Shown: in pieces, positions 11,571-63,913 of the stretch
How positions within the stretch are numbered: position 1 is the stretch's first letter
How the letters are laid out: every line of letters begins with the position of its first letter
Assembly: GCF_964204645.1 (NCBI RefSeq)
Contig: NW_027437445.1
Coordinates: 1-64,000, forward strand
Source of the DNA: Tubulanus polymorphus
Lineage: Eukaryota > Animalia > Nemertea
DNA length: 64,000 bases
Reading direction: 5' to 3'
The notes under the pieces: generated by a model
Seen by the model: the letters and a program-made list of their open reading frames with translations, nothing else
What the model was told of the DNA's origin: nothing
Database searches by the model: none
Made by a program: the position numbers and the translations under genes

Positions 11571-11577
11571 TAATAAA

Positions 11578-12873: not shown

Positions 12874-12959
12874 AGTTTTTTCAATTGGAACATTACTATT
12901 TTTAGATTTAATTTTCTTTTCACCTACTATTTATATAAGAAACAAATTACTTGTGTTGT

Positions 12960-13245: not shown

Positions 13246-13247
13246 GT

Positions 13248-13300
13248 TTAAATAAATTCATATTTAAATGGGTGTTGTAATCGAAATAGTAATTTTGATC
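13248..13300 (-). pseudogene. C-terminal tail of Polinton B ATPase (...SKLLFRLQHPFKYEFI*)
   Basis: Matches the end of 63650-63913 and continues the ORF broken at 39473. Confidence 0.9.
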
Positions 13301-39472: not shown

Positions 39473-40039
39473 ATTTTGATCTTTTATTCATTTTCAATTT
39501 ATCCATATATTCATTGTGTAAATCATGTGAAATAATATCATTTTCCTCAAGCGCATTTTTCATTGATTTTCTATCTTTATTGTAGAATAATACTAAAAAT
39601 CTAATATTCTCCCTAAAATCTTTAACAATTGAATTATATTTTTGATTTAAAACCCAAGTTGTTATCCAAAAATGTCTTCCAGAGAAAGCTAAATAACATA
39701 ATTCACTCTCTCTAATTTTTGAATCATTTAAATTTGCACAATCATCAATGATAAATAATGTATTTGATCCTTTATAAATATCAATAGCTATTTTCATACA
39801 ATTATCTAAATTTTCTTTAACTGTTTTAGGATTTAATACAAAAAATTATTATTATTTCTAGTAATATTTCTATCATAAGTTTTATTAAATTCATACGTTG
39901 GACAAAATAATACTATATTATCAAAATAGTTTTTATAAATAGTTTCTAATGAATGTAATATAAAATAAGTTTTCCCACAATTAGTTACACCAGAAATTAA
40001 CATATTATGAGGCTCAAATATAAATAATTCCTTATTCAT
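39473..40039 (-). pseudogene. Polinton B packaging ATPase (frameshifted, interrupted)
   Basis: GVTNCGKT, IIDDCA, GRH; highly similar to 63305-63913. Confidence 0.92.
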
Positions 40040-41160: not shown

Positions 41161-41173
41161 CTTTATATTTCTA

Positions 41174-41580
41174 TTATTGAATACTATCGAATTGAGAATT
41201 TATAATATTTAATTGGGCGTCAGATATAATATAAATGTGGACTTTGAAATTTTTGATTCATTTTTCTTTTTTATGAATAATTGAATTCCATCTTTTGTAT
41301 TTTGTAGTTTTTTTTCCCAGAACCATGTAATAAGTTATCTTCAGTTGTTCTAAAATCTAACCATAATGCGTATTTATTACCAGTATAATAATCAATTTGA
41401 TTAATATTACAATTTTCAGATGATTTTATTTTTTCCTTCATAAAATGTTTTCTAATTTCTGGCCACCGATCTATCATTCTCATTCCTTGGCAAAATACTT
41501 TATTAGCTATACCTTCAATAGTTATTTCTACCTTTGATATTTCAGGATTATAATAATTATCAACATTTATTGCGCGTTAT
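41174..41580 (-). pseudogene. Polinton B major capsid protein, C-terminal third
   Basis: Matches ~61740-62146; ends abruptly at the satellite. Confidence 0.9.
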
Positions 41581-44500: not shown

Positions 44501-47500
44501 GATAAATAATGTCGATGCGTAAAAGCGCTCAAATCGACGGGAAAAGCACATTTCGACCCGAAAACGTCGTTCAGCGCGAGAAAAGACGTTTTCTCGTCAA
44601 CTTATCCCCGTATCGGGAAAATGAAAATGTCGATGCGCAAAAGCGCTCTAATCGACGGGAAAAGCACATTTCGGCCCGAAAACGTCGTTCAGCGCGAGAA
44701 AAGACGTTTTCTCGTCAACTTCTCCCCGTATCGGAAAAATGAAAATGTCGATGCGCAAAAGCGCACAAATCGTCGGAAAAAGCACATTTCGGCCCGAAAA
44801 CGTCGTTCAGCGTGAGAAAAGACGTTTTCTCGACGGGAAAAGCACATTTCGGTCCGAAAACGTCGTTCAGCGCGAGAAAAGACGTTTTCTCGTCAACTTC
44901 TCCCCGTATCGGAAAATGATAAATAATGTCGATGCGTAAAAGCGCTCAAATCGACGGGAAAAGCACATTTCGACCCGAAAACGTCGTTCAGCGCGAGAAA
45001 AGACGTTTTCGTATCGAATATTCCCCCTATCGGAAAAACGACAATGTCGATTCGTAAAAGCGCACAAATCGTCAGGAAAAGCGCATATCGGCCCGAAAAC
45101 GTCGTTCAGTGCGAGAAAAGACGTTTTCTCGTCAGCTTCTCCCCGTATCGGAAAAATTATAATGCCGATGCGCAAAAGCGCTCAAATCGACGGGAAAAGC
45201 ACATTTCGCCCCGAAAACGTCGTTCAGCGCGAGAAAAGACGTTTTCTCGTCAATTTCTCCCCGTATCGGAAAAATGATAAATAATGTCGATGCGTAAAAG
45301 CGCTCAAATCGACGGGAAAAGCACATTTCGACCCGAAAACGTCGTTCAGCGCGAGAAAAGACGTTTTCTCGTCAACTTATCCCCGTATCGGGAAAATGAA
45401 AATGTCGATGCGCAAAAGCGCTCTAATCGACGGGAAAAGCACATTTCGGCCCGAAAACGTCGTTCAGCGCGAGAAAAGACGTTTTCTCGTCAACTTCTCC
45501 CCGTATCGGAAAAATGAAAATGTCGATGCGCAAAAGCGCACAAATCGTCGGAAAAAGCACATTTCGGCCCGAAAACGTCGTTCAGCTCGAGAAAAGACGT
45601 TTTCTCGACGGGAAAAGCACATTTCGGTCCGAAAACGTCGTTCAGCGCGAGAAAAGACGTTTTCTCGTCAACTTCTCCCCGTAACGGAAAAATGATAATG
45701 TCGATGCGTAAAAGCGCTCAAATCGTCAGGAAAAGCACTTTTCGACCCGAAAACGTCGTTCAGCGCGAGAAAAGACGTTTTCGTATCGAATATTTCCCCT
45801 ATCGGAAAAACGACGTTGTCGATGCGTAAAAGCGCTCAAATCGTCAGGAAATGCACTTTTCGACCCGAAAACGTCGTTCAGCGCGAGAAAAGACGTTTTC
45901 GTATCGAATATTCCCCCTATCAGAAAAACGACGATGTCGATGCGTAAAAGCGCTCAAATCGTCAGGAAATGCACATTTCGGCCCGAAAACGTCGTTCAGC
46001 GCGAGAAAAGACGTTTTCTCGTCAACTTTTCCCCGTATAGGAAAAATGATAATGTCGATTCGCAAAAGCGCTCAAATCGACGGGAAAAGCACATTTCGGC
46101 CCGAAAACGTCGTTCAGCGCGAGAAAAGACGTTTTCTCGTCAACTTCTTCTCCCCGTAACGGAAAAATGATAATGTCGATTCGCAAAAGCGCTCAAATCG
46201 ACGGGAAAAGCACATTTCGGCCCGAAAACGTCGTTCAGCGCAGGAAAGACGTTTTCTCGTCAACTTCTTCTCCCCGTAACGGAAAAATGATAATGTCGAT
46301 TCGCAAAAGCGCTCAAATCGACGGGAAAAGCACATTTCGGCCCGAAAACGTCGTTCAGCGCGAGAAAGACGTTTTCTTGTCAACTTCTCCCCGTATCGGA
46401 AAATGAAAATGTCGATGCGGAAAAGCGCACAAATCGTCGGAAAAAGCACATTTCGGCCCGAAAACGTCGTTCAGCGCGAGAAAAGACGTTTTCTCGACGG
46501 GAAAAGCACATTTCGGTCCGAAAACGTCGTTCAGCGCGAGAAAAGACGTTTTCTCGTCAACTTCTCCCCGTAACGGAAAAATGATAATGTCGATGCGTAA
46601 AAGCGCTCAAATCGTCAGGAAAAGCACTTTTCGACCCGAAAACGTCGTTCAGCGCGAGAAAAGACGTTTTCGTATCGAATAATCCCCCTATCGGAAAAAC
46701 GACAATGTCGATGAGTAAAAGCGCACAAATCGTCAGGAAAAGCGCATTTCGGCCCGAAAACGTCGTTCAGCGTGAGAAAAGACGTTTTCTCGTCAACTTC
46801 TCCCCGTATCGGAAAAATGATAATGCCGATGCGCAAAAGCGCTCAATTCGACGGGAAAAGCACATTTCGGTCCGAAAACGTCGTTCAGCGCGAGAAAAGA
46901 CGTTTTCTCGTCAACTTCTCCCCGTATCGGAAAAATGATAATGTCGATGCGCAAAAGCGCTCAAATCGACGGGAAAAGCACATTTCGGCCCGAAAACGTC
47001 GTTCAGCGCGAGAAAAGACGTTTTCGTATCGAATATTTCCCCTATCAGAAAAACGACGATTAAAATGCGAAAAAGCGCTCAAATCGTCAGGAAAAGCGCA
47101 TTTCGGCCCGAAAACGTCGTTCAGCGCGCGAAAAGACGTTTTCTCGTCAACTTCTCCCCGTATCGGAAAAATGAAAATGTCGATGCGCAAAAGCGCACAA
47201 ATCGTCGGAAAAAGCACATTTCGGCCCGAAAACGTCGTTCAGCGTGAGAAAAGACGTTTTCTCGACGGGAAAAGCACATTTCGGTCCGAAAACGTCGTTC
47301 AGCGCGAGAAAAGACGTTTTCTCGTCAACTTCTCCCCGTAACGGAAAAATGATAATGTCGATGCGTAAAAGCGCTCAAATCGTCAGGAAAAGCACTTTTC
47401 GACCCGAAAACGTCGTTCAGCGCGAGAAAAGACGTTTTCGTATCGAATAATCCCCCTATCGGAAAAACGACAATGTCGATGAGTAAAAGCGCACAAATCG

Positions 47501-49252
47501 TCAGGAAAAGCGCATATCGGCCCAAAAACGTCGTTCAGTGCGAGAAAAGACGTTTTCTCGTCAACTTCTCCCCGTATCGGAAAAATGATAATGCCGATGC
47601 GCAAAAGCGCTCAATTCGACGGGAAAAGCACATTTCGGTCCGAAAACGTCGTTCAGCGCGAGAAAAGACGTTTTCTCGTCAACTTCTCCCCGTATCGGAA
47701 AAATGATAATGTCGATGCGCAAAAGCGCTCAAATCGACGGGAAAAGCACATTTCGGCCCGAAAACGTCGTTCAGCGCGAGAAAAGACGTTTTCGTATCGA
47801 ATATTTCCCCTATCAGAAAAACGACGATTAAAATGCGAAAAAGCGCTCAAATCGTCAGGAAAAGCGCATTTCGGCCCGAAAACGTCGTTCAGCGCGCGAA
47901 AAGACGTTTTCTCGTCAACTTCTCCCCGTATCGGAAAAATGAAAATGTCAATGCGCAAAAGCGCACAAATCGTCGGAAAAAGCACATTTCGGCCCGAAAA
48001 CGTCGTTCAGCGTGAGAAAAGACGTTTTCTCGACGGGAAAAGCACATTTCGGTCCGAAAACGTCGTTCAGCGCGAGAAAAGACGTTTTCTCGTCAACTTC
48101 TACCTGTAACGGAAAAATTATAATGTCGATGCGTAAAAGCGCTCAAATCGTCAGGAAAAGCACTTTTCGACCCGAAAACGTCGTTCAGCGCGAGAAAAGA
48201 CGTTTTCGTATCGAATATTCCCCCTATCAGAAAAACGACGATGTCAATGCGTAAAAGCGGTCAAATCGTCAGGAAAAGCGCATTTCGGCCCGAAAACGTC
48301 GTTCAGCGCGAGAAAAGACGTTTTCTTGTCAACTTCTCCCCGTATCGGAAAAATGATAATGTCGATGCGTAAAAGCGCTCAAATCGTCAGGAAAAGCGCA
48401 TTTCGGACCGAAAACGTCGTTCAGCGCGAGAAAAGACGTTTTCTCGTCAACTTCTCCCCGTATCGGAAAAATGATAAATAATGTCGATGCGTAAAAGCGC
48501 TCAAATCGACGGGAAAAGCACATTTCGACCCGAAAACGTCGTTCAGCGCGAGAAAAGACGTTTTCGTATCGAATATTCCCCCTATCGGAAAAACGACGAT
48601 GTCGATTCGTAAAAGCGCACAAATCGTCAGGAAAAGCGCATATCGGCCCGAAAACGTCGTTCATTGCGAGAAAAGACGTTTTCTCGTCAACTTCTCCCCG
48701 TATCGGAAAAATTATAATGCCGATGCGCAAAAGCGCTCAAATCGACGGGAAAAGCACATTTCGCCCCGAAAACGTCGTTCAGCGCGAGAAAAGACGTTTT
48801 CTCGTCAACTTCTCCCCGTATCGGAAAAATGATAAATAATGTCGATGCGTAAAAGCGCTCAAATCGACGGGAAAAGCACATTTCGACCCGAAAACGTCGT
48901 TCAGCGCGAGAAAAGACGTTTTCGTATCGAATATTCCCCCTATCAGAAAAACGACGACGTCAATGCGTAAAAGCGCTCAAATCGACGGGAAAAGCACATT
49001 TCGGCCCGAAAACGTCGTTCAGCGCGAGAAAAGACGTTTTCTCGTCAACTTATCCCCGTATCGGAAAAATGAAAATGTCGATGCGCAAAAGCGCTCTAAT
49101 CGACGGGAAAAGCACATTTCGGCCCGAAAACGTCGTTCAGCGCGAGAAAAGACGTTTTCTCGTCAACTTCTCCCCGTATCGGAAAAATGATAATGTCGAT
49201 GAGCAAAAGCGCTCAAATCGTCGGGAAAATCACATTTCGGTCCGAAAACGTC
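41589..49252. repeat. 118-bp satellite array, about 65 monomers
   Basis: Unit GCACATTTCGGCCCGAAAACGTCGTTCAGCGCGAGAAAAGACGTTTTCTCGTCAACTTCTCCCCGTATCGGAAAAATGATAATGTCGATGCGCAAAAGCGCTCAAATCGACGGGAAAA; first period 41589 to 41707. Confidence 0.98.
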
Positions 49253-49338: not shown

Positions 49339-52300
49339 ATGGGGGAGAATGAACACCAACTAGAAAACAATAATGTCAATAAAAATCAATATTATTGTCA
49401 ATATTGTAAAAAAAAAATCGATACATCTTATAAAACACGACATGAAAAAACTGCAAATCATATAAAAAATGTAATAGATTTTGAAACTCCAGAAAATTCC
49501 AATGAAAGAAAAGAACGATTAGAAAATATGAATGTGGATGAAATAAAATGTGAAGTTTGTAATGAATTTATAGTAAAAAGGAATTATAATAGACATCTCG
49601 AATCACAAAAACATTATAAAAATTTAAATAAAAATGTTTTAGGATTAGAATATTTTGATAATAAACCTCAACAAGTAAAAGAATCAACTTCAAAAACTAA
49701 ATCCATTTCAAATAAACCTTACATGGAAAATGTTAGAAATTATATTGATTCACTAGAAATAAAAGATACAATTGAAATTTTAGAAACATTACATAGTAAA
49801 ATTGGTCCTGCAGCTATTATATTTAGATTTTTTAAAGGTACAACAATAGAAGATTATAGTAAATTTAATGAAATAATAGAAAAAATACTAGATTTGATAA
49901 CAGATGTTGAATATCCAAAAATTAGTATCTCTGGGAAAGTAAGTTTTATAAAGTCAGAAGATAAAATGGATTATAATATTCAAACACTCTCTGAAGAAAT
50001 AATTTCAAAAACACAAATAAAAGAGAAGTTAGAAAAAATATTAAATGAATTTAAACGTCATATTGAAGAAAGATATTTTGAGGGTTCTGGCTTAACATTG
50101 AATGAAATTATATATTTAGATTTAAATGTTTATAATACAAAAAGGAATAAAACATCAAAAAGTAATAAAATGTTTAAAAATGATTCAAACTTTACAACAG
50201 AAAAGGATATTAAAGCATCATCTTATATTAAATTACCATTTATAACAAAAGCAGTAATAAATATTCAAAATGAAGATAATAAATGTTTTCTATGGTCAAT
50301 TATTAGTTGCTTACATCCAACACAGGAAAATGTTTGTAGAATAACAGATTATCGGAAATATGAAACATTATATAAAATTGATCAATATCCAGTAACTATA
50401 AAAATGATTCCTAAAATAGAAAAAGTTAATAATTTAAAAATAAATGTATTCGAATTAATGCAATTACCAAAGACAAAAGGTGAAAATATTAAAGATTATA
50501 CATTGGAAGCTTTATATTTAACAGAATATTATGATGATGAAAATGCTATAGATTTGTTACATTACAAAAAAGATGAAAATGAACATTATATGTGGTTAAA
50601 ACAAATTGATTTATTCTTTAGAACAGAAAGTGATCATCATAATAAAATTTATCTATGTAGAAAATGTTTATCTAAATTTATGACTGAGAATACATTATTA
50701 AAACATAAAGAATTATGTGATAATAAAGATTTTTGTAAATTAATAATGCCAACAGAAAAAGATTATAAATTGAAATTTACTAATCATAAATTTAAAAATA
50801 TTGTTCCATTTGTAATTTATGGGGATTTTGAATCGTTGAATAAAGAATTAACTGGTCAAGATAGAAAAGAAATATATAACAAAAAGCAATTATTAAAATC
50901 AATGGATAAAGGAAATGAATTAAATGAAGACACAATACAAGACCCACCAATTATAAATACAATTAAAAAAGTTCATCAAAGAGCTGCTGCTTATGGAATT
51001 TACATAAAATCAAATTATCCTGAATTATATGAAAGTCAATATATTTCTTTTAGAGGTGAAAATGTAGTTAATGATTTTTGTGATAAAATGATTGAATTAG
51101 AAAGTGATTTTACAAAATTATTAAACAAAAATAAAAGAATAGTTATGACAAAAGAAGATGAAATTGATTTTAATTATGCAACTCATTTTTGTTACTGTGA
51201 AAAACGTTTTTATTCATTTGATAAAAAAGTTAGAGATCATGATCATTTAAATTCAAAATATCGTGGAGCTGCTCATGAAGATTGCAATTTACAAGCTAAA
51301 AAAGTAAATTTCGTACCAATATTATTTCATAATTTATCAGGATATGATACCCATCTATTTATAAAACAATTATCAGGAAAATTGGGTGCAATTAATCAAG
51401 AAATAGAAGAATATAATGCTATGAATGAAGCAAATGTAAGAAAATATGATTTTAAACTATTAGCTAAAACATCTGAAAATTATATTTCATTTCAATTTGG
51501 TTGCATTAGATTTTTAGATTCTTATAGATTTCTAGCAAGTTCATTAGATAATTTATCAAAAAGTTTAGTTGATAATGATTTTGTTATAACTCGATATTAT
51601 TATCCAAATGAACAAGATTTTAAATTATTGAGATATAAAGGCGCAATTCCTTATTCATTTTATAAAACACATGATGATTTTAATGTAACAGAATTATTAA
51701 AAGATCAATTTTATGATCAATTAAAAGAGGAGTATGTGAAAGACGAAGTTTTTAATAGAACATTAAATATTTGGAACCATTTTAAGATGAAAAATCATGG
51801 CGAATTAGTTGATTTATATTTAAAATCAGATGTTATGATATTGGCTGACATATTTGAAAAATTTAGAGAAGTTAATTTGAATCATTTTAATGTTGATCCT
51901 TGTTATTGTTATTCTAGCCCAGGATTAACCTGGCAATGTGGTTTAAAATATACAAATGTAGAATTAGATTTATTAAAAGAACCAGATATGATTTTATTAT
52001 TTGAAAAATCAATTAGAGGTGGAATTAGTGGTGTTATGGGAGATAGGTATTTTAAAGCAAATGATGAATATAAATTATTATATATTGACGCCAATAATTT
52101 ATATGGTTGGGCAATGATGCAACCTCAACCATATAAAAATTTTATATTAACAGAAGTTGAAAATGGTGATAAAACTGATTGGGAAAGCGCAATTATTAGT
52201 TTAAAAGATGAAGCACCAATTGGTTATTTCTTTGTAGTTGATTTAGAATATCCTGAAAATATAAAGTTTAAAACAAGAAACTTACCTTATTGCCCAGAAC

Positions 52301-54402
52301 ATTTAACTGTAGATGATAGTTATTTAAGTGAATACCAGAAGAAAATAAAACCGAAAGATCATGTTTTTACAGAAAAATTAATACTTACTCAAAATAATAA
52401 ATACAATTATATTGTTCATTATAGAATGTTAAAATTTTATCTAAAACAAGGAATGAAATTAAAGAAAGTACATAGATATATTGAATTTAATCAATCGAAG
52501 TGGTTAGAAAAATATATAGATTTCAATACTCAACAGAGAACCATATCAAAAACAGATTTTGAAAAAGATTTTTTCAAATTGATGAACAATAGTTTTTATG
52601 GAAAAACATGTGAAAATATTAGAAATAGAAATGATATTGAATTAGTAAATAATTCTGAAAGATTAAGACATTTACAATCAAGTCCTAGACATTTAGGAAA
52701 TAAAAGGTTTGAAGATTATTTAACCGCGGTAAAATTAAAAAGAACGTCCATGAAATTTAATAAACCAATATTTATAGGTTCAACTGTTTTAGAAATTTCA
52801 AAATTATTGATGTATGAATTCTATTATAATGTATTACAACCTCATTTTGGAGAAAAACATATAGAAATCTTATATTTTGATTCTGTAACAGCTGATACTC
52901 CAATATTATTAAAATATAATAATCAAATATTAATTAGAAGAATTTCAGAAATAATTTCTTATCAAAATAAATCTTATATTTCGTATGGTGAAAAAGAACT
53001 AATACAAATAAATGGATTAATGGATGTTTGGACAAAAAATGGATGGGCGAAATTAAAGAATATAATTAGACATAAAACGAATAAGAAAATCTATAGAGTT
53101 AGAACTAAATTAGGATTTGTTGATGTTACTGAAGATCATAGTTTAATTAAACAAAATGGTGATGAAATAAAACCAACTGATATAAAAATTGGAGATGAAT
53201 TATTACACAACAGATTTTACCCAAGAATGAATCATATGTCATTTGATGAAATAATTGATAATATTTATAATATAGAACCCGAAACATTAGAAGAAAAAAA
53301 ATATTTTATCAAAGGATTTTTCATGGGCGATGGTTCAGCAGGTGTGTATAATTATGTTAATCGCACTCAATATCGTTGGTATTTATGCAATCAAGACTTA
53401 AAATTATTAGAAAGAATTAAGAAATTCTGTGAAGAAGTTTATCCAAATAAAACATTTAGAATCATGGATCATATGAAATCATCCGCGGTTTATAGAATAT
53501 TTGTAAATAATCCTAAAGATTTTGCTACAAAATATAATGATGAATTCTATATTCATGCAATAGTGAAAAGTAATACTTCAACTAAAGAAAAGATAGTTCC
53601 AGATTATGTATTAAATGCAAAAAATAATTTAAGAAAATGGTTCTTCATTGGATTCTATGCAGCAGATGGTTCAAAAAGTTTCCAAAACCGCAAAACAATA
53701 TCCTTTGCTCAAAAAGGAAAAGTTGCTATATCAGGATTGAATATATTATGTAGTTCATTAGGATTTAATATGAATATAGAATTAATTAAATCTAAACCAA
53801 ATTGTTTTAATTTAAGGCATGTAGAAAAAGAATTAACAGAAGAAGTTAAAGATTTATTTGAAATATATAACCCAACTGACTATGTTTATGATTTATCAAC
53901 AGATGATGGAACATTCAATTCTGGGTTCCCATTAATCCAAAAAAATACCGACAGTTACATACTAAAAATCAAGACAAATGACATAACAAAAGACTTAAAA
54001 ACATTAAAACATTATTTTGATTTTAGCAATTACCCCAAAGATCATGAATTGTTTAGCAATGATAATAAAAAGATTCCTGGTAAGTTTAAAGATGAATTAG
54101 GAGGTGATGAAATGATTGAATTTGTTGGGATAAGAAGTAAAATGTATAGTTACAGAACAAAAGATCATGAAGCTAAAAAGTTAAAAGGAATAACAAAACA
54201 TGTGGTTGATAAACATATAGAATTTCAAGATTATATAAAGTGTTTATATAAATCAATTCTAATGAAACACAAAATGAATTGTTTTAGATCAGAAGATCAT
54301 GAGATGTACATTAATGAAGTTGAAAAAACTAGTTTAAATCCATTTGATGATAAAAGGCATATTTTAGATGATGGTATAAAAACATTACCTTATGGCCATT
54401 AA
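49339..54402 (+). CDS. polB: Protein-primed family B DNA polymerase precursor containing an intein
   Basis: N-terminal Zn fingers, NKCFLWSI, exonuclease motifs YGDFES / FHNLSGYD / YLKSDV, EndoVII-like DHDH...GAAH..CN, motifs A YIDANNLYGWAM and B KLMNNSFYGK, split motif C YFD//TDS; 1687-aa open frame. Confidence 0.96.
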   Translation: MGENEHQLENNNVNKNQYYCQYCKKKIDTSYKTRHEKTANHIKNVIDFETPENSNERKERLENMNVDEIKCEVCNEFIVKRNYNRHLESQKHYKNLNKNVLGLEYFDNKPQQVKESTSKTKSISNKPYMENVRNYIDSLEIKDTIEILETLHSKIGPAAIIFRFFKGTTIEDYSKFNEIIEKILDLITDVEYPKISISGKVSFIKSEDKMDYNIQTLSEEIISKTQIKEKLEKILNEFKRHIEERYFEGSGLTLNEIIYLDLNVYNTKRNKTSKSNKMFKNDSNFTTEKDIKASSYIKLPFITKAVINIQNEDNKCFLWSIISCLHPTQENVCRITDYRKYETLYKIDQYPVTIKMIPKIEKVNNLKINVFELMQLPKTKGENIKDYTLEALYLTEYYDDENAIDLLHYKKDENEHYMWLKQIDLFFRTESDHHNKIYLCRKCLSKFMTENTLLKHKELCDNKDFCKLIMPTEKDYKLKFTNHKFKNIVPFVIYGDFESLNKELTGQDRKEIYNKKQLLKSMDKGNELNEDTIQDPPIINTIKKVHQRAAAYGIYIKSNYPELYESQYISFRGENVVNDFCDKMIELESDFTKLLNKNKRIVMTKEDEIDFNYATHFCYCEKRFYSFDKKVRDHDHLNSKYRGAAHEDCNLQAKKVNFVPILFHNLSGYDTHLFIKQLSGKLGAINQEIEEYNAMNEANVRKYDFKLLAKTSENYISFQFGCIRFLDSYRFLASSLDNLSKSLVDNDFVITRYYYPNEQDFKLLRYKGAIPYSFYKTHDDFNVTELLKDQFYDQLKEEYVKDEVFNRTLNIWNHFKMKNHGELVDLYLKSDVMILADIFEKFREVNLNHFNVDPCYCYSSPGLTWQCGLKYTNVELDLLKEPDMILLFEKSIRGGISGVMGDRYFKANDEYKLLYIDANNLYGWAMMQPQPYKNFILTEVENGDKTDWESAIISLKDEAPIGYFFVVDLEYPENIKFKTRNLPYCPEHLTVDDSYLSEYQKKIKPKDHVFTEKLILTQNNKYNYIVHYRMLKFYLKQGMKLKKVHRYIEFNQSKWLEKYIDFNTQQRTISKTDFEKDFFKLMNNSFYGKTCENIRNRNDIELVNNSERLRHLQSSPRHLGNKRFEDYLTAVKLKRTSMKFNKPIFIGSTVLEISKLLMYEFYYNVLQPHFGEKHIEILYFDSVTADTPILLKYNNQILIRRISEIISYQNKSYISYGEKELIQINGLMDVWTKNGWAKLKNIIRHKTNKKIYRVRTKLGFVDVTEDHSLIKQNGDEIKPTDIKIGDELLHNRFYPRMNHMSFDEIIDNIYNIEPETLEEKKYFIKGFFMGDGSAGVYNYVNRTQYRWYLCNQDLKLLERIKKFCEEVYPNKTFRIMDHMKSSAVYRIFVNNPKDFATKYNDEFYIHAIVKSNTSTKEKIVPDYVLNAKNNLRKWFFIGFYAADGSKSFQNRKTISFAQKGKVAISGLNILCSSLGFNMNIELIKSKPNCFNLRHVEKELTEEVKDLFEIYNPTDYVYDLSTDDGTFNSGFPLIQKNTDSYILKIKTNDITKDLKTLKHYFDFSNYPKDHELFSNDNKKIPGKFKDELGGDEMIEFVGIRSKMYSYRTKDHEAKKLKGITKHVVDKHIEFQDYIKCLYKSILMKHKMNCFRSEDHEMYINEVEKTSLNPFDDKRHILDDGIKTLPYGH
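52882..53946 (+). mobile_element. Intein (355 aa) with LAGLIDADG homing endonuclease
   Basis: Block A SVTADTPIL, block B VDVTEDHSLI, blocks C/E FIKGFFMGDGS and FFIGFYAADGS, block F YVYDLST, C-terminal KN followed by +1 Thr. Confidence 0.95.
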
Positions 54403-55699
54403 AACATAAAATCAATATCATCATACTCGAAATCACTATTGGCTTCTTCATTTTCATTTAATTGTTCAGGTTCTTCTTCCATTCCATTTTTCTCATTTAA
54501 ATAAAGTTCTATCTTGTTCCACATTTCATCTCGCTCTCTTTGTTTCTTTTTGTTTGTTAATTCATCAAATGGAATTATAATATCTAGGTTTAAATAATTT
54601 ACAATCTTATTTAAAAAGAATTCATAATTTATTGAATCTGTTATTCTATTTTCCAAATGATACATTAATATTTGTTTGAATATTTTTTTTATATTTTTCA
54701 TATCTTCTTCTGTTAATTTAGGTTTTTCATAATAATCGTTAAATAATAAATATAAATACATTTTCTTTTGTTTTGTGTTAAATGTTGGTGGAATAATTGT
54801 TTTTATAATATCTTTTTTAGTTATTTCACCATTTTCATTTTCTATTATTTTCATTTTTTCAAGCCATTGCATATATTCTGGTGTATGATCTTCTATAGAA
54901 AATATTTTAAAAATTTCATCAAGATAATTTAATTTTGGATCTATGAGAAAATCTCTAGTTTTTTCTTCACCTAATAAATTCTTTTGCCATCCACATTCAT
55001 TACAAAATATCACAGGACCTTCTTGTCTTAAGTACTCATAAATACATTGTGGGCATTTTTTTCTATCATAGCTTGGTAATAGATCTTCATTAAGCTCTTG
55101 GTATTTTCTTACGTTTTCTTTATGTTTTATTGTTCTATTATGTAGATTTGAATTACTTGTTGTAATAATCAATTTACAATATTTACAATAATATGTTTTT
55201 CTTGTTAATTCATTATATTGTTTTTCTAACTTTTCAACTGTTTCTTCATTATCTGGTAACGTTTTCTCATATTTAAATTTTTCTAATAAATTATTTTTTC
55301 TTTCATTGAATTCAGTTTCAAATTTATTAGAAATTTTATCTATATGTACTTTACGAAATTGATGATTCTCCCAATCTTCTATATTTTCAGGGTTATATTT
55401 TATTCGACAAGGCTCACAGAAATGATCTTTTATATTATCCTTATCATAGAATAAGAAAGGTCTTTTCCAAATAACTTCAGGTTCAACTTCAGCAGAATTA
55501 CTATCAACATTAGCCGTTGCGCCATTAATTCTACACTTCTCTGAATGTTTTTAACATAATTTCTTGAGAATAATTTATCACATTTTGGGCAGTTTATTTT
55601 AGGGGGTTTATAATTTTCATCATGTTTTTTCATATGTCGAGCCTTATTACTTTTTCTTAGAAGTTCACCACAAATTTCGCATGCTATCTTCTCATCCAT
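54399..55699 (-). pseudogene. Multi-zinc-finger protein with VLTF3 (poxvirus A2)-like C-terminal domain; frameshift near 55550
   Basis: TAAATG start; CEIC...H...H, CPKC, CEPC, CKYC fingers; CPQC...CNECG ribbon then KPKLTEE...IFKQI...INYEFFLNKI...DEMWNKI; VLTF3 call is by eye. Confidence 0.65.
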
Positions 55700-55767
55700 T
55701 TATTAAGGAAAAATTTTATTAAAATTAATTTTTAGTGATGAGCGGTAATTTTTTTATGTTATAAATA

Positions 55768-56526
55768 ATGGTAGAATTAAAAGAATACAGAATATTTGTT
55801 GATTCTAGAAAACTTACAAATTATAAATCTCATAATTTATTAGTACAATTAGATAGAGAATTTAAGAATTGCGTTGATTTAAAATTAGTAAATATAAGTT
55901 TATGTAATTCTTTTTATAATATATCGGATAAAACTTTCGAACATAGAGGTTTTGCAATTCATATGAAAAATAAAAATAAATGGTTTTATCTAATGTTAAA
56001 ACCAGGGTTATATAATTTAGAAACATTAGCCCAAGAAATTAATCGGAGAGCACGATTAAAACTTGGAAGTGAATATAAATTTTCAATTAGATTTATAAAA
56101 AGTGATAGTTCTGATAAAATTAAAATAAAGTTAGATGATGAAAGCAAACATGCATTTATGGTAAGGAAACCTTTAGCTAAAATGTTAGGAATTAAACCAC
56201 AAATTGTTACAGGAAACGTAGACGGTAATTCAAATATAATACCTTTTACACATTTTTATATTTATTGCAATTTAATCGATCCTACAAAAACATTTGAAGC
56301 AACTAAAGATACAACATGTAATTCTGGTTTACTAAACATTTTACCATTGAAGAATGTTAAACAATTTGGAACGCAAATAAATTATAATTTAACAGAATGT
56401 GATTTCAAACCATGCATTCCTCGTTTTAATAATTTTAGATTAGAAATTAGAAATCATACTGGATACTTAATTGATTTAAATAATTTCCCTGTAATTTATG
56501 AATTAGTTATAAGATGTAAAGAGTAA
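55768..56526 (+). CDS. Minor capsid protein (penton)
   Basis: IFVDS, NSFYNI, PGLYN, YIYCNLID, LLNILP and LEIRN..G.LIDLNN motifs typical of Polinton pentons. Confidence 0.8.
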   Translation: MVELKEYRIFVDSRKLTNYKSHNLLVQLDREFKNCVDLKLVNISLCNSFYNISDKTFEHRGFAIHMKNKNKWFYLMLKPGLYNLETLAQEINRRARLKLGSEYKFSIRFIKSDSSDKIKIKLDDESKHAFMVRKPLAKMLGIKPQIVTGNVDGNSNIIPFTHFYIYCNLIDPTKTFEATKDTTCNSGLLNILPLKNVKQFGTQINYNLTECDFKPCIPRFNNFRLEIRNHTGYLIDLNNFPVIYELVIRCKE

Positions 56527-56542
56527 TTTTTTCATTATATAA

Positions 56543-56884
56543 ATGAATATAACTGTTGGACCGAGTATATGTTTTGGGTTTGATTTTAAACATGGTAAAG
56601 AAATGAGAATTAAACTAAATGATGTAATTACTGATGTAAAAAGTAGATCATTTAACAATGCATCAATGATTGATAAAGAAAATTATAATATAGAAAAAGT
56701 AATTGATTTAATTAAATCACCTTTAGAATATTATGAATTAAATGAAGATGGAATTATTGATGATATTAAAAACATATTATCCAAAATATATGATAATCAT
56801 AAAACTAGTAATGAAATAAATGTTGAAATAATCATCACTAAGATAACTAAATATTTTGATGATAGTAATTTTTTTGATAAATAA
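56543..56884 (+). CDS. Polinton hypothetical protein
   Basis: TAAATG start, tightly packed open frame. Confidence 0.65.
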   Translation: MNITVGPSICFGFDFKHGKEMRIKLNDVITDVKSRSFNNASMIDKENYNIEKVIDLIKSPLEYYELNEDGIIDDIKNILSKIYDNHKTSNEINVEIIITKITKYFDDSNFFDK

Positions 56885-57106
56885 ATGAGTGATAATAAGT
56901 GGATAATAAGTGGATTATATAATGGCGCATTACTATCAGTTGGAACGGTTGGTTATTCAATGGTATTAAAAAAAGTATTCAAAATGGGAAGTGTTAATGT
57001 TGATAGATTTGATATCAATGATATTTTAAAGTTAACATTAGCAGTTACTTTATCTAATTTAACTATTGATTATTTGGAAAAACAAAAATATATTCCTCCC
57101 ATATAA
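56885..57106 (+). CDS. Small hydrophobic Polinton protein
   Basis: TAAATG overlaps the upstream stop; two hydrophobic/amphipathic segments. Confidence 0.7.
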   Translation: MSDNKWIISGLYNGALLSVGTVGYSMVLKKVFKMGSVNVDRFDINDILKLTLAVTLSNLTIDYLEKQKYIPPI

Positions 57107-57133
57107 GAAGTGTGTAATTTTTTTGCTAAATAA

Positions 57134-57556
57134 ATGGCTTCTGCAATTATAACTATTATAGGATCGGCAATTGTTAACGCTTTAGCATTTACTGGTGGTG
57201 GTTATTTATTTAAACATATTGATAAAAATAGTTCATTAGGAGAACAAAGAAGACATAACTTAGCGTTAGAGAAATACAATAAAGCTGCAGAAGAATATAG
57301 AGAAAAGAGACAAAACTATATGGATTACATCAATAAAGAATTATATGATCAGAAGATTTCACACAGAGATTTTCAATCAGTTGATGATGCAATGAGTTTA
57401 TATAACGCGGTAACCAATAAAGAAAAATTACATCTATACAAACCCAAATTATCAGATTATTATACCCCAAGTAAAGAACAACAGAAATATGAAATAATAT
57501 GGATTTTAGGTGGAACAGTTATTGTTATATTTGTTGCTTATAAGTTTACTAATTAG
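57134..57556 (+). CDS. Polinton membrane protein (N- and C-terminal hydrophobic segments)
   Basis: TAAATG start; IITIIGSAIVNALAFTGGG and IIWILGGTVIVIFVAY. Confidence 0.75.
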   Translation: MASAIITIIGSAIVNALAFTGGGYLFKHIDKNSSLGEQRRHNLALEKYNKAAEEYREKRQNYMDYINKELYDQKISHRDFQSVDDAMSLYNAVTNKEKLHLYKPKLSDYYTPSKEQQKYEIIWILGGTVIVIFVAYKFTN

Positions 57557-57575
57557 TAATTTTTATTCTAAATAA

Positions 57576-58010
57576 ATGGAAGATAAAGTTGATAGTATTG
57601 ATATTATTCCTCATGATATAAATAAAACTAAATTAAAAATATATTTAGAAAAACAAATATTAGAATTTGAAAGTGACTTAAAGATAAAAAAGAAAAAATA
57701 TTTAAAAAGTAAAATTATATATTATTTGATTATAAGTGGTTCGGTTACAATTAGTTCTGTAATAACATTTTTAGCAATATTCAGCCCATTAACACCTTTA
57801 GCTATATCAATTGGTGTATTAGGATTAAGTTCAAGTGTTTTAACTGGTATAAGTTCAAAATTAAATATAAAAAGTAATAAAGAAAAAATTAAAACTAATA
57901 TAAAAGAAATTAATAAATTAAAGAACACACTAGATTATATAATAAGTTTAAATGGCCATATAACAGTTGAAGAACAAGATAAATTATTAAAAGAATTAAT
58001 AAATTATTAA
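57576..58010 (+). CDS. Two-TM Polinton protein with coiled coils
   Basis: TAAATG start; ~45-aa central hydrophobic hairpin. Confidence 0.75.
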   Translation: MEDKVDSIDIIPHDINKTKLKIYLEKQILEFESDLKIKKKKYLKSKIIYYLIISGSVTISSVITFLAIFSPLTPLAISIGVLGLSSSVLTGISSKLNIKSNKEKIKTNIKEINKLKNTLDYIISLNGHITVEEQDKLLKELINY

Positions 58011-58026
58011 TTTTTTAATTATATAA

Positions 58027-59413
58027 ATGGTAGATAGTTTTCCAAAAGCTTTCCGATATAATAAATCAATTAAATATAATATTCCAGCAATAGATTTTAA
58101 TAAAGATATTACATATAGAAATGAAGTTTTAGATTCATTAACTAATTTAGAAATTTATGTTACTGAAACTAATAATTTTAATGCAAAGATGGAAAATATA
58201 TTTCATGTATATTTAATTAATTTTAAAAAATTGAAAGATGAAAAACAATGGTTATTAAAATCTAATATGAAGTATTGGCAGAACCAATTAAATTTTGCTG
58301 TTTATTGTGCAACAACAGGATGTGGAATTAGTTGGAATGATCATTTAAATAATTCTAAATATAAATTAATTCAAAGTTTATTTAGATTTCATACATACTT
58401 TCAAATCAGAATAATATTAAATGAATTAGAGTACGCTTTACCAGGATCTAGGTATTTCAAAGAATTAGATAATAATATTAATTTATCTAAGTTTTATAAG
58501 ATTTGCAATGAATTTAATATAGATATAAATAATTCTGATTTTAGAACAAAAATTGGAACAATAAGATCACTTCCATGCCCTAGAAAGATTGCAGAATATT
58601 GTGCACTTCCCATACCATCTAATACTTTTTATAATATCTATAATAATAAATTAGGTTATGGTAAAATAGAAACAAAGGATTTAGAAACATTAAATTTCAA
58701 TAAATTACCAAAATTTTATGATAATTTAAAACAAGAAAACAATAATGGTTGGGTTTATTTTATTTTAGAAAATAGTGAAGGTTTTACTAAATCAGGTATA
58801 GAAAGAATAAATCAATCTATTAGAATTTATTTGATTTGTATTCTAGGTGCGCAAGTTGAAACAAGATCACCGATAACTGGAAATTTGAATACATCATTCG
58901 ATACACAAAAACAATTTAAAGTATTATTTGAAGATTCCATACATGATGATAAAAATAGATCGATTCCAGAAAACATTATAAGATATCAAAATTATTTAGA
59001 TAAATCTCATGTAAGACTTAATTATTGTATAGGCCCTAATCTATTAATTATTTCTAATGATTTAGTATTGAAGATGGGAAATATAATTGGTTATAATAAT
59101 CTAATTAAAACTGCAACAATAAATAATTCATTCGGGTTAAATAATATAAATAAAAAGATTATTACTGCTCCAAAATTAATGGAAGGTGAAAAAAATAAAA
59201 AAACATATTCAATCAACAGAAACTAAAACTAAGAATATTAAATTAAATAATGATTCTAAAATAAAAGATTACAATACATCAGAAAATAATAGAACTGATA
59301 TTATTCAACATGATATAATTAAACTAAATGATGATAATAAATCCCATGAAAATACTAAATTAGCTAAATTAACTTGTATAGGAATTGTTATAGGAGGAAT
59401 ATTATATTTTTAA
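58027..59413 (+). CDS. Polinton hypothetical protein, probably frameshifted in the A-run near 59190-59200, with a C-terminal TM segment
   Basis: 399-aa ORF (WQNQLNFAVYCATTGCGISW) overlapped by a 75-aa ORF that has no TAAATG of its own. Confidence 0.7.
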
Positions 59414-59435
59414 TTTTAATTTTTTTATTATATAA

Positions 59436-60878
59436 ATGGATGTAGAAGGTGGAGAAGATATTGGAATGGATCCTTTTGATGAACCTAACATAACTGATGA
59501 ACAACCACCTGATTTTGATGAAACAAGTTTTAATGATGGTAATGAACCAGAATATAACAATAATTTAAATATGCCTGATTATATTAAAAATGCTGAATCA
59601 CAATTAAATCCTGAAAATTTAGACCCAGATTTAGTAAAACAAGATTTAGATAATTTAAACAAAATACCTAAATTAGAAGATTTAATTGAAAAATCTAATT
59701 TTAACATAAATGATGAAGACGTTGCACTTTTAGCAGATCAATTAAAATTTTTAGATAATGGTAAATGTAATTATCGTTTGAAAGGTGATTATTATATTGA
59801 TATCACTTATAAAAATAATAAAAATAAAATATTATCAGAATCAACTTTAGAAAAATTAAAACCAGATAGAATTAAAATAAAAAGTAATAGTAATGAAATA
59901 ACTGATGTTACACAAAAAGAAATAGATGATAATATAGATGTATTTAAACAAAGAATTAATGAATTATTTGAAATAATCAAAAAGAAATCAGAAACAGAAA
60001 CAACTTCTGAACAGAATATAACTTCCAAAAATAGTAAACTTAGATCAAATAAAGTTCCAATTGAAAAACTTTTACCGAATGGATTACTTGATGCAACAGA
60101 TCAAGAATTAGAAGATTTAGATATATTTTCTGATAAAGCAATTAGAGAAATTATTAGTATAAGACTTGCATCTGATAAAATTGCACATAATAAAAGTATA
60201 AGAGATTTTAAAATTAGAACTTTAGAAAAAGAATTAACTGATAAAAATAAAGAAATAGAACAATTAAAGTCTGATTTAGATCATCAAGTAATTGATGAAA
60301 TAGAATATAGGCAAAAAGAATTACGTTTAGAAAAAGAAATTAGTAATTTAAAAGATAATTTAGAAGTACAGAAAGAAGAAATTAAATTATTATTAAAATC
60401 ATATGATTATAATATTAATAGATTAAAAGTTATTTTTAAAGATTTGTTGATTAAACCAAATTCTGAAATATCATTAAAAGACAGGATGAAGTTATTATTT
60501 AAATTAGAAGGAATAACAATTCTTTCAATTCTAACAGCTGTAACTATGTTATTTACAACAATTGGTTTAGCTATATCAAATGCTTTAAAATCTACTCCTC
60601 CTACTCCCACTCCCAATAAACCAGATAAACCTCCAGGCAATAATTCTATACAAGATAAAGTTAAAGATGGTTTAAAGAAATTAGCAAAATATTTATGGGA
60701 ACTATCTAAAAAATCTGCTGCAGCATTGCCAGGAGTTATTGCATCAATTGTTGGTTTTATATTGAAATCTGCTGGGAATATTCTTAACTTTGCTGCCGAA
60801 CATATTATTTTATTTTTAATTACAGTTGTAAGTGCTATTATTTTTGGTTTAGTAAATATGATATCAAAAAATAAATAA
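59436..60878 (+). CDS. Coiled-coil protein with C-terminal multi-TM region
   Basis: Acidic N-terminus, heptad region, Pro-rich linker, three hydrophobic segments. Confidence 0.8.
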   Translation: MDVEGGEDIGMDPFDEPNITDEQPPDFDETSFNDGNEPEYNNNLNMPDYIKNAESQLNPENLDPDLVKQDLDNLNKIPKLEDLIEKSNFNINDEDVALLADQLKFLDNGKCNYRLKGDYYIDITYKNNKNKILSESTLEKLKPDRIKIKSNSNEITDVTQKEIDDNIDVFKQRINELFEIIKKKSETETTSEQNITSKNSKLRSNKVPIEKLLPNGLLDATDQELEDLDIFSDKAIREIISIRLASDKIAHNKSIRDFKIRTLEKELTDKNKEIEQLKSDLDHQVIDEIEYRQKELRLEKEISNLKDNLEVQKEEIKLLLKSYDYNINRLKVIFKDLLIKPNSEISLKDRMKLLFKLEGITILSILTAVTMLFTTIGLAISNALKSTPPTPTPNKPDKPPGNNSIQDKVKDGLKKLAKYLWELSKKSAAALPGVIASIVGFILKSAGNILNFAAEHIILFLITVVSAIIFGLVNMISKNK

Positions 60879-60898
60879 TTAATTTTTTTGTTTAATAA

Positions 60899-62146
60899 AT
60901 GAGTGGGAGTTATATAAGTCCTTCTAAGATTTCTAGAATATCTAATGCTATTAAAGCAGAAAGATCACATCATATAATTACTCATAACCCTTCAAATATT
61001 AATCCCGATGAAACTTTATATGTTAGAATTCCTAGATTAACACAAAATACTTTTTATGTTCCAAACAGTATTTATTTATCAGCTGATATAAAAGTAATCG
61101 GTAATAATAATAATTATGTTGTTGATAATGTTGGAAGATATTTGATTAAAAAATTAACAATAAAGATTGGTCCGGAAACAGTTTTCTCATTAGATGATTA
61201 TAATTTATTTTCACATTATAAAGATTTATGGTTAACTAAAGAAAATAGAAATAATATGATATTTCAAGGAATTCAATCAGAAAACCAAAATAAATTAAGA
61301 TCAGAAGCGCATAATGCAATATTAACTAATGATGTAGATAAATTGATAAAAAGTATATATGGAAGCAAATATAAAATTCCATTAGACTTTGAATTGATAG
61401 ATAATAATGCACCTTTATATAAATACGCAATTCAAGAAGATATTATATTTGAGATAACATTTGCTCCTGTAAATTAAATTGTATTATCTAGCGTTGTTAA
61501 AGATATGAGTTATAAATTATCGAATATATGTTTAGAATATAACACAATAACTAATGAAAATATTGCTAGCACAATTCAAACTCAATACAATCAAGGATTT
61601 TCATTATTATATGATTATATTGATAAATTTAAAACTGTAACTATTAATGCAAATGATGAAATTATTAATGAGAATATTAACTTTCCTAGAAGATCTATTA
61701 AAGGTATATTAATATTTTTTACCATTGGAACGTATACTAATGGCGCAATAAAGGTAGATAATTATTATAATCCTGAAATAACAAAAGTAGAAATAACTAT
61801 CGAAGGAATAGCAAATAAAATATTTTGTCAAGGAATGAGAATGATAGATCAATGGGTAGAAATTAAAAAACATTTTATGAATGAAAAATTAAAATCATTT
61901 GAAAATTGTAATATTAATCAAATTGACTATTATACCGGTAATAAATTTGCATTATGGGTAGATTTTAGAACAACTGAAGATAACTTATTACATGGTTCTG
62001 GGAAAAAATTACAAAATACAAAAGACGGAATACAATTATTTATGAAAAAGAAAAAAGGAAGTTTAAATTTCAAAATGCACATTTATATTATATCTGACGC
62101 ACAATTAAATATTGTAAATTCACAATTAGATAGTATTCAATATTAG
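60899..62146 (+). pseudogene. Major capsid protein (double jelly-roll), single nonsense at 61475-61477
   Basis: The two ORFs are in frame (27-nt gap), ~415 aa; NPS.I.P.ETL.V.IP, YKIPLDF, FALWVDFRT; size and position fit a Polinton MCP. Confidence 0.8.
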
Positions 62147-62176
62147 AAATATAAAGTTAAAATTAAGGATATATAA

Positions 62177-63304
62177 ATGAGTGGTAAAAAAACTCCTAAT
62201 ACTAAAGAACAATATTTAAGAAATTTATATTACAACCCTGAGAGTTCGGTTGCTTATTCTTCTACTAAAAATATATGGCGTAAAGTAAAACAAGATAAAT
62301 TAGATAAGATAATCCCACAAAATTTAGTTAAATATAAAGATATAAATGAATTTATGTTAGAACAACCAACATATACAACATATAAAAAAATTGTTAGAAA
62401 ATATAAAACTCGTAAAACTATGGTAAGTTATGTAGATCAACAGTGGCAAGGAGATTTAATTGATATGAAAAATGTTAAGAAAGATAATGATGATTATTGG
62501 TGGTTATTGAATATAATTGATATTTTTAGTCGTTATGTATGGAGTTTCCCACTTTATAGAAAAGATGCTGTACAAACATCAAATGTTTTAAGAAAATTTC
62601 TTTCGGATGATAAACTAAAACCAGAAAAAATACAATTTGATGATGGAAAAGAATTTGATAATTCACTTGTTCATGAACTCTTAGATAATCATAATATTAA
62701 ATATTTTTCAACAAAATCAGATAAAAAAGCAGCAGTTGTTGAACGATTTAATAGAACATTAAGAACAAGAATGTGGAAATATTTTACAGCAAATAATACT
62801 TTTAAATGGATTGATGTTTTACCAAAATTGATAGAAGGATATAATAATTCTTATCATTCTTCTATTGGAATGAAACCTATTGATGCTAGAAAATCTGAAA
62901 ATGCTGAAATTGTTTGGAATAATTTATATGGAGCATTTCTTATAGATGATTTTGGTGAACCTAAATTTAAAGTTGGTCAAAATGTTAGAATTTCTAAGTA
63001 TAAAAAGATATTTGACAAAGGATACGATCGAAATTTTACTAGAGAAATATATAAAATAAAAAAGGTAATAACAACAAAACCATATGTCTATAAATTAGAA
63101 GATTTAGATGGTGAAGAAGTTGATGGTTACTTTTACGAAGAAGAATTAAGTTTAACTACTGAAAATCTAGAACAAGAATATAAAATTGAAAAAGTATTAA
63201 AAACAAAAACTATTAAAAGAAAAAAATATTCTTTAGTAAAATGGGTTGGATGGCCAAATAAATTCAATGAATGGATATTATCAAGTAAAATTAAAAATAT
63301 ATGA
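62177..63304 (+). CDS. Retroviral-type DDE integrase with C-terminal chromodomain
   Basis: WQGDLIDM, IDIFSR, QFDDGKEF, VVERFNRTL; YKIEKVL...LVKWVGWP..FNEWI. Confidence 0.95.
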   Translation: MSGKKTPNTKEQYLRNLYYNPESSVAYSSTKNIWRKVKQDKLDKIIPQNLVKYKDINEFMLEQPTYTTYKKIVRKYKTRKTMVSYVDQQWQGDLIDMKNVKKDNDDYWWLLNIIDIFSRYVWSFPLYRKDAVQTSNVLRKFLSDDKLKPEKIQFDDGKEFDNSLVHELLDNHNIKYFSTKSDKKAAVVERFNRTLRTRMWKYFTANNTFKWIDVLPKLIEGYNNSYHSSIGMKPIDARKSENAEIVWNNLYGAFLIDDFGEPKFKVGQNVRISKYKKIFDKGYDRNFTREIYKIKKVITTKPYVYKLEDLDGEEVDGYFYEEELSLTTENLEQEYKIEKVLKTKTIKRKKYSLVKWVGWPNKFNEWILSSKIKNI

Positions 63305-63913
63305 ATGAATAAGGAATTATTCATATTTGAGCCTCATAATATGTTAATTTCTGGTGTAACAAATTGTGGAAAAACTTATTTTATATTAAATTTATTAGAA
63401 ACTGTTTACAAAAACTATTTTGATAATATAGTATTATTTTGTCCAACATATGAATTTAATCAAACTTATGATAGAAATATTACTAGGAATAATAAATTTA
63501 TTATATTAGATCCTAAAACAGTAAAATAAAATTTAGATAATTGTATAAAAATAGCAATTGATATTTATAAAGGATCAAATACATTATTTATCATAGATGA
63601 TTGTGCTAATCTACATGATTCAAAAGTTAGAGAAAGTGAGTTATGTTATTTGGCTTTCTCTGGAAGACATTTTGGGATAACAACTTCGGTTTTAAATCAA
63701 AAATATAATTCAATTGTTAAAGACTTTAGAGAAAACATTAGATTTCTAGTTTTATTCTACAATAAAGATAGAAAATCGATGAAAAATGCACTTGAGGAAA
63801 ATGATATTATTCCACATGATTTACATAATGAATATATGGATAAGTTGAAAAATATTAAAAGATCAAAATTACTATTTAGATTACAACACCCATTTAAATA
63901 TGAATTTATTTAA
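63305..63913 (+). pseudogene. A32-like packaging ATPase, nonsense at 63527-63529
   Basis: Walker A GVTNCGKT, Walker B IIDD, GRH; TAA where copies A and B have GAA. Confidence 0.92.

Follow-up and report, generated by a model that had tools for sequence, protein, structure and literature searches.

An intact pol-c-type intein in the protein-primed DNA polymerase of an integrated Polinton, with putative marks of homing

The stretch of DNA analysed here (64 kb, below called the window) carries an integrated Polinton whose gene for a family B DNA polymerase of the protein-primed type (pPolB), polB, is interrupted in catalytic motif C by an intein of the pol-c type (52882–53946) that is intact and includes a LAGLIDADG endonuclease region. 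Both the insert and its boundaries are firmly established. We predict that the intein splices itself out of the polymerase and consider it probable that it spreads by cutting, and being copied into, empty copies of the gene. Our analysis supports the interpretation offered by an initial annotation of this DNA, and shows in addition that the intein is a member of a Polinton-wide clade and not a one-off.

RESULTS

An intact intein splits motif C of a Polinton polymerase

The longest open reading frame (ORF) of the window (49339–54402) encodes 1687 amino acids (aa). Within it lies an in-frame, stop-free insert of 1065 bases and 355 aa on the forward strand that runs from Ser (SVTADTP) to Asn (IQKN), with LYFD upstream and TDSY downstream; subtracting it leaves a polymerase of 1332 aa, the length that the initial annotation had given. 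The insertion falls between the first Asp and the Thr of motif C, which is the pol-c placement known from the Mimivirus PolB intein, itself described as having Ser first, Asn last and Thr at +1 (PMC549080), and the annotation had rightly named YxD|TDS as this site. The N-terminal Hint region (52882–53211), with block A at Ser1 and block B at Thr83-Glu-Asp-His86 (TEDH, 53128–53139), is matched over residues 2–88 by TIGR01445, the profile of the intein N-terminal region (30.4 bits, cut-off 24.5). The LAGLIDADG endonuclease region (53287–53820) contains GFFMGDG (53314–53334, with Asp150) and GFYAADG (53650–53670, with Asp262), matches LAGLIDADG_3 (PF14528; 33.4 bits, cut-off 22.5) and resembles PI-type endonucleases and I-DmoI in fold. 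The C-terminal Hint region (53839–53946), recognized from its sequence, holds YVYDLST, block F at Asp337 and block G at Lys354-Asn355. All three parts lie on the forward strand, and Ser1, Thr83, His86, Asp337, Asn355 and the Thr at +1 make up the canonical residues of a class 1 intein. The Pfam model Intein_splicing reaches 37.0 bits with the whole protein (cut-off 35.8) and 27.7 bits, below that cut-off, with the intein alone. A search with Hint and LAGLIDADG profiles had been proposed as a check.

Structure gives the same picture. PI-PkoII is the sole solved relative found by sequence (E 4e-5). An AlphaFold model of the intein, built from six input sequences (mean predicted local distance difference test, pLDDT, 76.7), has endonuclease-bearing inteins as its best fold matches, TliVMA first (E 2e-15), then PhoVMA, PI-PkoII, PI-PfuI and PI-SceI; when viral models are compared, giant-virus DNA polymerases rank first. 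Independent confirmation of the edges of the insert comes from DNA reads in which precisely these 1065 bases are absent, and the insertion is missing from close homologues, both from empty (intein-less) alleles in the reads and from empty exteins that are 73% identical (P0159–P0161, MYFDTDSY). The guanine–cytosine (GC) content is 25% in the intein and 23–26% in the exteins. An RNA intron was considered and rejected, since the skip occurs in DNA reads, is in frame and lacks GT-AG ends.

The usual but non-obligatory penultimate His is replaced by Lys354. The initial annotation reported this Lys correctly and took it to be unusual; the latter part does not hold, as Lys is the commonest residue at this position among related RNA-primed PolB inteins with motif-defined ends (90 of 155, against 57 with His) and is found in 3 of 10 Polinton inteins. 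The insert otherwise agrees with a canonical pol-c intein in every sequence and fold property that we tested.

The protein around the intein is a protein-primed polymerase, as had been claimed. Its N-extein (49339–52881, forward strand; 1181 aa) starts with zinc fingers, ends at the first Asp of motif C and matches PF03175 with 69 bits (cut-off 25.8), a match that the intein hides when the whole protein is scanned; in the nearest Atlas clusters 22–40% of the members carry PF03175. The C-extein (53947–54402, forward strand; 151 aa) starts with the +1 Thr of TDS and is 41–59% identical to the C-exteins of related pPolBs. The N-extein is also read as having, like its relatives, an endonuclease VII-like insert; PF02945 matches 23 of the 26 members of alignment A2 and does not match the window protein itself. 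A profile search with the exteins returned no solved polymerase relative by sequence.

Filled and empty copies coexist in the reads

Four of the ten sequencing runs listed contain the window stretch, all from one study; run X5, of which 12% was read, consists of raw DNA with the same species label from another study. In X5, 107 reads with 68 different starts lack exactly 1065 bases, so that FD is followed directly by TDS, and in 39 further reads that lack the intein the three codons just past the site show synonymous changes. The exact empty joint is also present in contigs of runs X1 and X4; contigs of X2 do not show it. Alleles with and without the intein therefore coexist, which the initial annotation had suggested surveying.

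Relative to a single-copy baseline of 17 host bins (mean 7.0-fold; a bin containing a repeat spike was omitted, as were the repeat-rich ones past 37077), the exteins are covered 58–59 times and the intein 29 times, an intein to extein ratio of 0.49. It should be noted that these are rough figures, as likeness limits of 95% for host bins and 85% for the element were applied and diverged intein copies can drop out. Taken as such, they give some tens of polymerase copies, about half of them filled.

The same intein recurs across distant Polinton polymerases

Three protein searches gave 289 hits among 5153 candidates, 4440 among 7989 and 1108 among 7992, and the best 120 of each were considered. 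An intein at the same site is present in at least 12 other Polinton-type polymerase clusters (P0002, P0003, P0004, P0009, P0012, P0065, P0215, P0276, P0277, P0278, P0281 and P0299), three of them incomplete; several of the ENA proteins among them may come from one host. Four of the best 120 exteins are filled, and the closest of those listed (73%) are empty. Ten complete, non-redundant Polinton inteins are only 40–86% identical in pairs, and Ser1, Thr83, His86, Asp150, Asp262, Asp337 and Asn355 are invariant in all ten. Mean identity is 0.52 in the endonuclease region, 0.54 in the Hint region and 0.28 in the linker. P0004 is a PF03175 polymerase, with a motif that we take to be VSR-like; its intein is 47% identical to that of the window, and its exteins have no blastp match to those of the other nine Polinton polymerases.

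A profile search of 1.84 billion representatives gave 3171 hits, of which the best 150 comprise 131 RNA-primed PolBs, 6 type II topoisomerases and 13 unclassified proteins, with no detectable pPolB extein among them. No close Polinton-type match was found in viral contigs (37 loci, best full-length identities 41–42%) or in prokaryote genomes (28 loci), the neighbours of these loci not having been sorted individually. Among 80 of 235 metagenome matches that were retained there is at least one Polinton-type locus, L038, whose intein has two in-frame stops. P0078 and P0121 had a precomputed PF03175 label and were nevertheless rejected as pPolBs; by sequence they are RNA-primed PolBs and were counted as such.

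Several single cases were noted beside these searches. P0438, a 190-aa fragment, is by eye of the P0277 type. P0276 (MBV2113503.1) is an intein-bearing Polinton pPolB filed under a metagenome-assembled genome (MAG) of Candidatus Thiodiazotropha from the clam Ctena; it sits on a 2.5-kb contig and is probably host DNA binned with the symbiont. P0164, an empty pPolB, likewise carries a Sulfurimonas label. P0115, named by NCBI as the DNA polymerase delta catalytic subunit of Chloropicon primus, bears a related intein whose site is YGD|TDS. Further members of this intein family are found at DxD|TDG-like sites in type II topoisomerases (P0005, P0069, P0114 and the six representatives), from which it appears that the family also jumps between unrelated proteins sharing an acidic metal-binding motif.

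Differences between filled and empty polymerases centre on the insertion site

The P0003 cluster, of which 15 of 136 members were examined, allows filled and empty polymerases to be compared at short distance; seven filled and six empty full or near-full proteins were aligned with two further empties. The filled proteins differ from three empties of the YFDTDA type by 12 fixed differences in 1191 columns, all of them between −7 and +44 residues from the site, and identity is 98–99% away from the site and 79–81% near it. With the YTDCDS type all 14 fixed differences in 899 columns are near the site, and with the more distant YGDTDA type 12 of 46 are, where near means a co-conversion window of −12 to +50 that was chosen after the sequences had been seen. 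The flanks of the filled P0003 proteins (CHYMD|TDSFVLSV) resemble those of filled P0278, P0215 and P0299, and co-conversion of flanks is described as a mark of homing (PMC2790892). Homing accompanied by co-conversion would be expected to produce this pattern. A pair of near-identical empty types differs in 8 of 900 columns, five of which lie at −5 to +3, and empties that differ just around the site are predicted by escape from cutting. In the P0281 cluster (15 of 121 members examined) filled members occur together with one empty that has the same flanks.

On an extein tree of 36 N-extein stretches, picked from 116 and stripped of the 12 residues nearest the site, the intein state changes nine times, eight of these changes being forced by starred branches. 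Nine is not fewer than in shuffled labels (109 of 500 shuffles are as low), so intein presence is scattered over the tree. Of the 109 empty polymerases in which motif C could be read (P0159–P0275 and cluster members), 37 have DCD and not DTD; many may come from one host. DCD may represent escape from cutting, and a Cys at +1 could still serve splicing.

The same material can be read without homing. An intein that splices but does not home may have entered long ago and been inherited with the polymerase, with losses and ordinary recombination producing the mixture of filled and empty copies. We find this unlikely, and several observations do weigh on its side and against homing. In the main clade of exteins, intein identity rises and falls with extein identity (for example 59/63/59% and 79/76/79%), so that long co-descent with losses fits there as well as homing does. 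The count of changes, made on an unrooted tree, is blind to gain versus loss, and the co-conversion window was, as said, set after the fact. Most of the empty X5 reads keep the same site sequence as the filled copy, and their persistence means that an active endonuclease has not driven the intein to fixation there. Frameshifts occur in some intein copies (27 of 165 reads at 53484), and the intein depth is lowered also by copies that diverged past the 85% likeness limit. Against an idle endonuclease stands its conservation, equal to that of the splicing region, with both catalytic Asp residues invariant in 10 of 10 inteins. Every fixed difference between filled proteins and their near-identical empties clusters at the site, at least eight precise losses would be a weak fit, and P0004 requires a lateral jump. 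On balance these points argue for homing as the likelier source of the scattered intein.

Kinship with giant-virus polymerase inteins

The initial annotation proposed that the intein crossed over from an RNA-primed PolB lineage. Its kinship with giant-virus PolB inteins is borne out by trees, identities and model matches, while the direction of transfer can only be inferred. The window intein is 30–43% identical to RNA-primed PolB inteins and 41–42% to the best giant-virus MAG loci. In a 72-row tree, thinned by identity from 174 inteins with motif-defined ends, the ten Polinton inteins group together (SH-aLRT 100), their neighbours being RNA-primed PolB inteins with a C-terminal G[FY]PL motif in common (93). 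A second tree, of 49 rows, has six archaeal pol-c inteins as outgroup and omits 31 RNA-primed and 2 topoisomerase rows; in it the Polinton clade (100/100) lies within a 99/96 clade that contains all four giant-virus MAG loci added. A single transfer from a giant virus to a Polinton is the best reading that we infer from these trees.

The reverse is improbable in our view, namely that Polintons were the donors or a sister reservoir, with the intein passing from a protein-primed polymerase to giant viruses or reaching both from a common source. A tree in which all 33 RNA-primed PolB inteins stay together is not rejected by the approximately unbiased (AU) test (p 0.40); a sister relation is thereby retained, which leaves nesting and direction of transfer tentative. 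The outgroup of the 49-row tree also has long branches, most of its RNA-primed rows are without names, and the Polinton clade is deep and covers two distant polymerase types. All this counts against a transfer from giant viruses. The best tree, in contrast, nests the Polinton inteins among RNA-primed ones, which form one clade in 0 of 200 bootstrap trees, and RNA-primed PolBs, those of archaea among them, hold pol-c inteins in much greater number and variety. It should be added that a Polinton origin would concern the beginnings of the lineage alone and is compatible with homing.

The Polinton and its genomic setting

Downstream of polB lie further genes of the element. A VLTF3-like gene is encoded on the reverse strand (54399–54872; PF04947, 27.9 bits). 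The others are on the forward strand: a probable major capsid protein gene (60899–62146; Capsid_N at 17.6 bits, under the cut-off of 24, together with its translation) with one in-frame stop at 61475–61477, a retroviral-type integrase with a chromodomain (62177–63304; PF00665, 40.8 bits, and a weak PF00385 match), and an A32-type packaging ATPase gene (63305–63913; PF04665 in both halves) with one in-frame stop at 63527–63529. The polymerase and integrase frames are open. With capsid and ATPase genes each broken by a stop, the window copy is not a complete virus by itself. A Pfam scan of 11 ORFs (100 aa or longer) in 49339–63304 revealed no cysteine protease, and the element may extend past the window. 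Neither terminal inverted repeats nor a 6-bp target duplication came up at the left end, where the element borders on a satellite; its right end falls at the edge of the window or past it. The ORF at 55768–56526 (252 aa) has no Pfam match, and five more ORFs, all unassigned, follow up to 60878; presumably the product of the 252-aa ORF resembles Polinton minor capsid proteins.

The satellite is a tandem array (41589–49252, no strand assigned) of 118-bp units with a GC content of 47%. It extends over 7.6 kb between two oppositely oriented Polinton copies that are 91% identical across the capsid–integrase–ATPase part. Decayed Polinton pieces (integrase, ATPase and capsid ends) at 7200–13500 and 39473–41575 are 73–91% identical to the focal copy, and no second polB is present in the window. 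A high-copy element at 37078–39472 has a depth of 30 to 160 times baseline; at its end at 39472, 652 reads continue differently, this end recurs at 13301–13517, and both ends adjoin Polinton remains. The 220-bp stretch at 39248–39472 was considered as a Polinton end and rejected, being part of that other high-copy element. At 33826–33861 a 35-base stretch with more than 3200 loose-ended reads on each side in run X5 marks a motif common to a very abundant repeat.

Beside the decayed Polinton pieces, the window is rich in BEL/Pao, Penelope-like, LINE and MULE elements. The gag protein of BEL/Pao finds matches in eukaryotic clusters that are commonest in Arthropoda, Nematoda or Cnidaria (0.95–0.98), and BEL/Pao is termed a metazoan subclass (PMC3118150); the genome is therefore most likely that of an invertebrate. 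That the element is instead a free or symbiont-borne virus, or DNA of a non-animal eukaryote misjoined at the satellite, we regard as very unlikely: no read or contig in the runs examined joins the intein to unique host DNA, which speaks against a chromosomal place, as do the adjoining satellite, the lack of a detected terminal repeat and the fact that Mucoromycota are the commonest group in one of the three closest polymerase clusters, but runs from two studies contain both the unique DNA of the window and the element, the surrounding mobile elements are animal-like, the capsid and ATPase stops are as in integrated copies, and filled relatives (members of the P0003 cluster) sit on contigs of 95 kb to 1.0 Mb, far exceeding Polinton length. 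The initial annotation spoke of an animal chromosomal gene. An integrated Polinton amid animal-like flanking DNA would be in keeping with this; the host gene is, however, proviral and not a cellular animal gene.

DISCUSSION

The course of events that we favour, a homing intein in a Polinton polymerase, would run as follows. From what is known of intein chemistry, polB would be translated as a precursor of 1687 aa in which Ser1 undergoes an N–O shift, the Thr at +1 accepts the N-extein and Asn355 cyclises, leaving a polymerase of 1332 aa with its FDTDS motif rejoined. Since motif C stays split until then, the polymerase would depend on splicing. Once freed, the endonuclease would cut the empty site of further Polinton copies, whether chromosomal or replicating; these would then be converted as repair drew on a filled copy, with short flanks carried along. 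Dozens of copies per genome would offer a steady pool of targets, and empty copies with a changed site sequence may escape. The lineage would have begun with one jump from the RNA-primed PolB of a giant virus to a Polinton, followed by long residence with repeated gain and loss and by at least one later jump between distant Polinton polymerase types.

A wider claim, for which we see the case as evenly poised, is that animal genomes harbour a Polinton-borne intein lineage that is actively homing and self-splicing, that crossed once from the RNA-primed polymerases of giant viruses, that moves among the multicopy Polintons of several invertebrate hosts and between distant polymerase types, and that is engaged in an escape arms race at the residues around the catalytic DTD, even to the point of its change to DCD. 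If true, this would be a natural homing drive within the animal nucleus. Several consequences may be listed. Tens of intein copies would reside in what is most likely animal chromosomal DNA, though in a proviral and not a cellular gene. The intein would have crossed between two deep branches of family B polymerases at the catalytic motif that they share, and Polintons would be tied to giant viruses through a datable exchange. One genome with filled, empty and variant targets is a possible system for the study of homing, escape and the persistence of homing endonucleases, and Polintons may become a source of inteins and endonucleases evolved in animal cells.

How does this fit with earlier views of intein distribution? 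The supplement of a 2018 survey of eukaryotes by Green et al. gives zero inteins for Metazoa (PMC5784728), and a statement in a 2021 review has metazoan genomes without inteins (PMC8529194); in the sections available, two other papers treat inteins only generally (PMC12220804, PMC5718144). The word 'intein' is absent from the main text and one supplement file of Jeong et al. (PMC10748475), from the text and one supplement file of Starrett et al. (PMC8502044) and from the text of Barreat and Katzourakis (PMC8097293). The literature check proposed in the initial annotation thus brought up no report of a Hint intein in a Polinton in the literature searched, which did not cover Repbase, InBase, subscription journals and bioRxiv supplements.

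Among known systems the closest are the pol-c inteins of Mimivirus, other giant viruses and archaea, which, as far as the Mimivirus account describes them (Ogata, Raoult and Claverie 2005, PMC549080), share with ours the motif C site (YGD|TDS there, YFD|TDS here), the Ser start, the Asn end, the Thr at +1, a LAGLIDADG endonuclease and a similar length. Their host polymerase is RNA-primed (PF00136), whereas here it is protein-primed (PF03175) and belongs to an integrated, multicopy element with filled and empty targets in one genome. Viral-like DNA polymerases with inteins have been described on nuclear scaffolds of Klebsormidium, Tetrabaena and Hondaea, along with inteins of Anaeramoeba (Gallot-Lavallee et al. 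2023, PMC10710043). In those cases too, as the paper's main text presents them, viral polymerase inteins are brought into eukaryotic chromosomes with viruses as carriers, but the hosts are algae and protists, and that main text contains neither 'polinton' nor 'animal'; in our case a Polinton carries the intein, and its host is most likely an animal. The inteins of invertebrate iridoviruses included by Green et al. (PMC5784728) resemble ours in that these viruses replicate in animal cells; they belong to large free viruses with RNA-primed replication and not to integrated multicopy elements of a host genome.

Polinton pPolBs are known to carry nuclease insertions of the HNH and VSR kinds (Jeong et al. 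2023, PMC10748475; Krupovic et al. 2024, PMC11071308), and one sentence of Krupovic et al. suggests that nuclease insertions in polinton pPolBs stem from intein invasions. Like the intein, these are nuclease domains inside a Polinton polymerase; the parts of the two papers that deal with them describe nuclease domains and mention no splicing domain, whereas here a full Hint domain with a LAGLIDADG endonuclease splits motif C. With other Polintons/Mavericks (Polintoviricetes), as outlined in PMC11071308, the element shares pPolB, rve integrase, packaging ATPase and a probable capsid gene; it differs in the intein in its pPolB, in having no protease or terminal repeats identified within the window, and in its broken capsid and ATPase genes. 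What is new, then, is the host of the intein: the polymerase is protein-primed and belongs to a Polinton that is integrated and multicopy, in what is probably an animal. The intein is part of a lineage that extends over many Polintons and bears, at the level of populations, marks that homing would leave.

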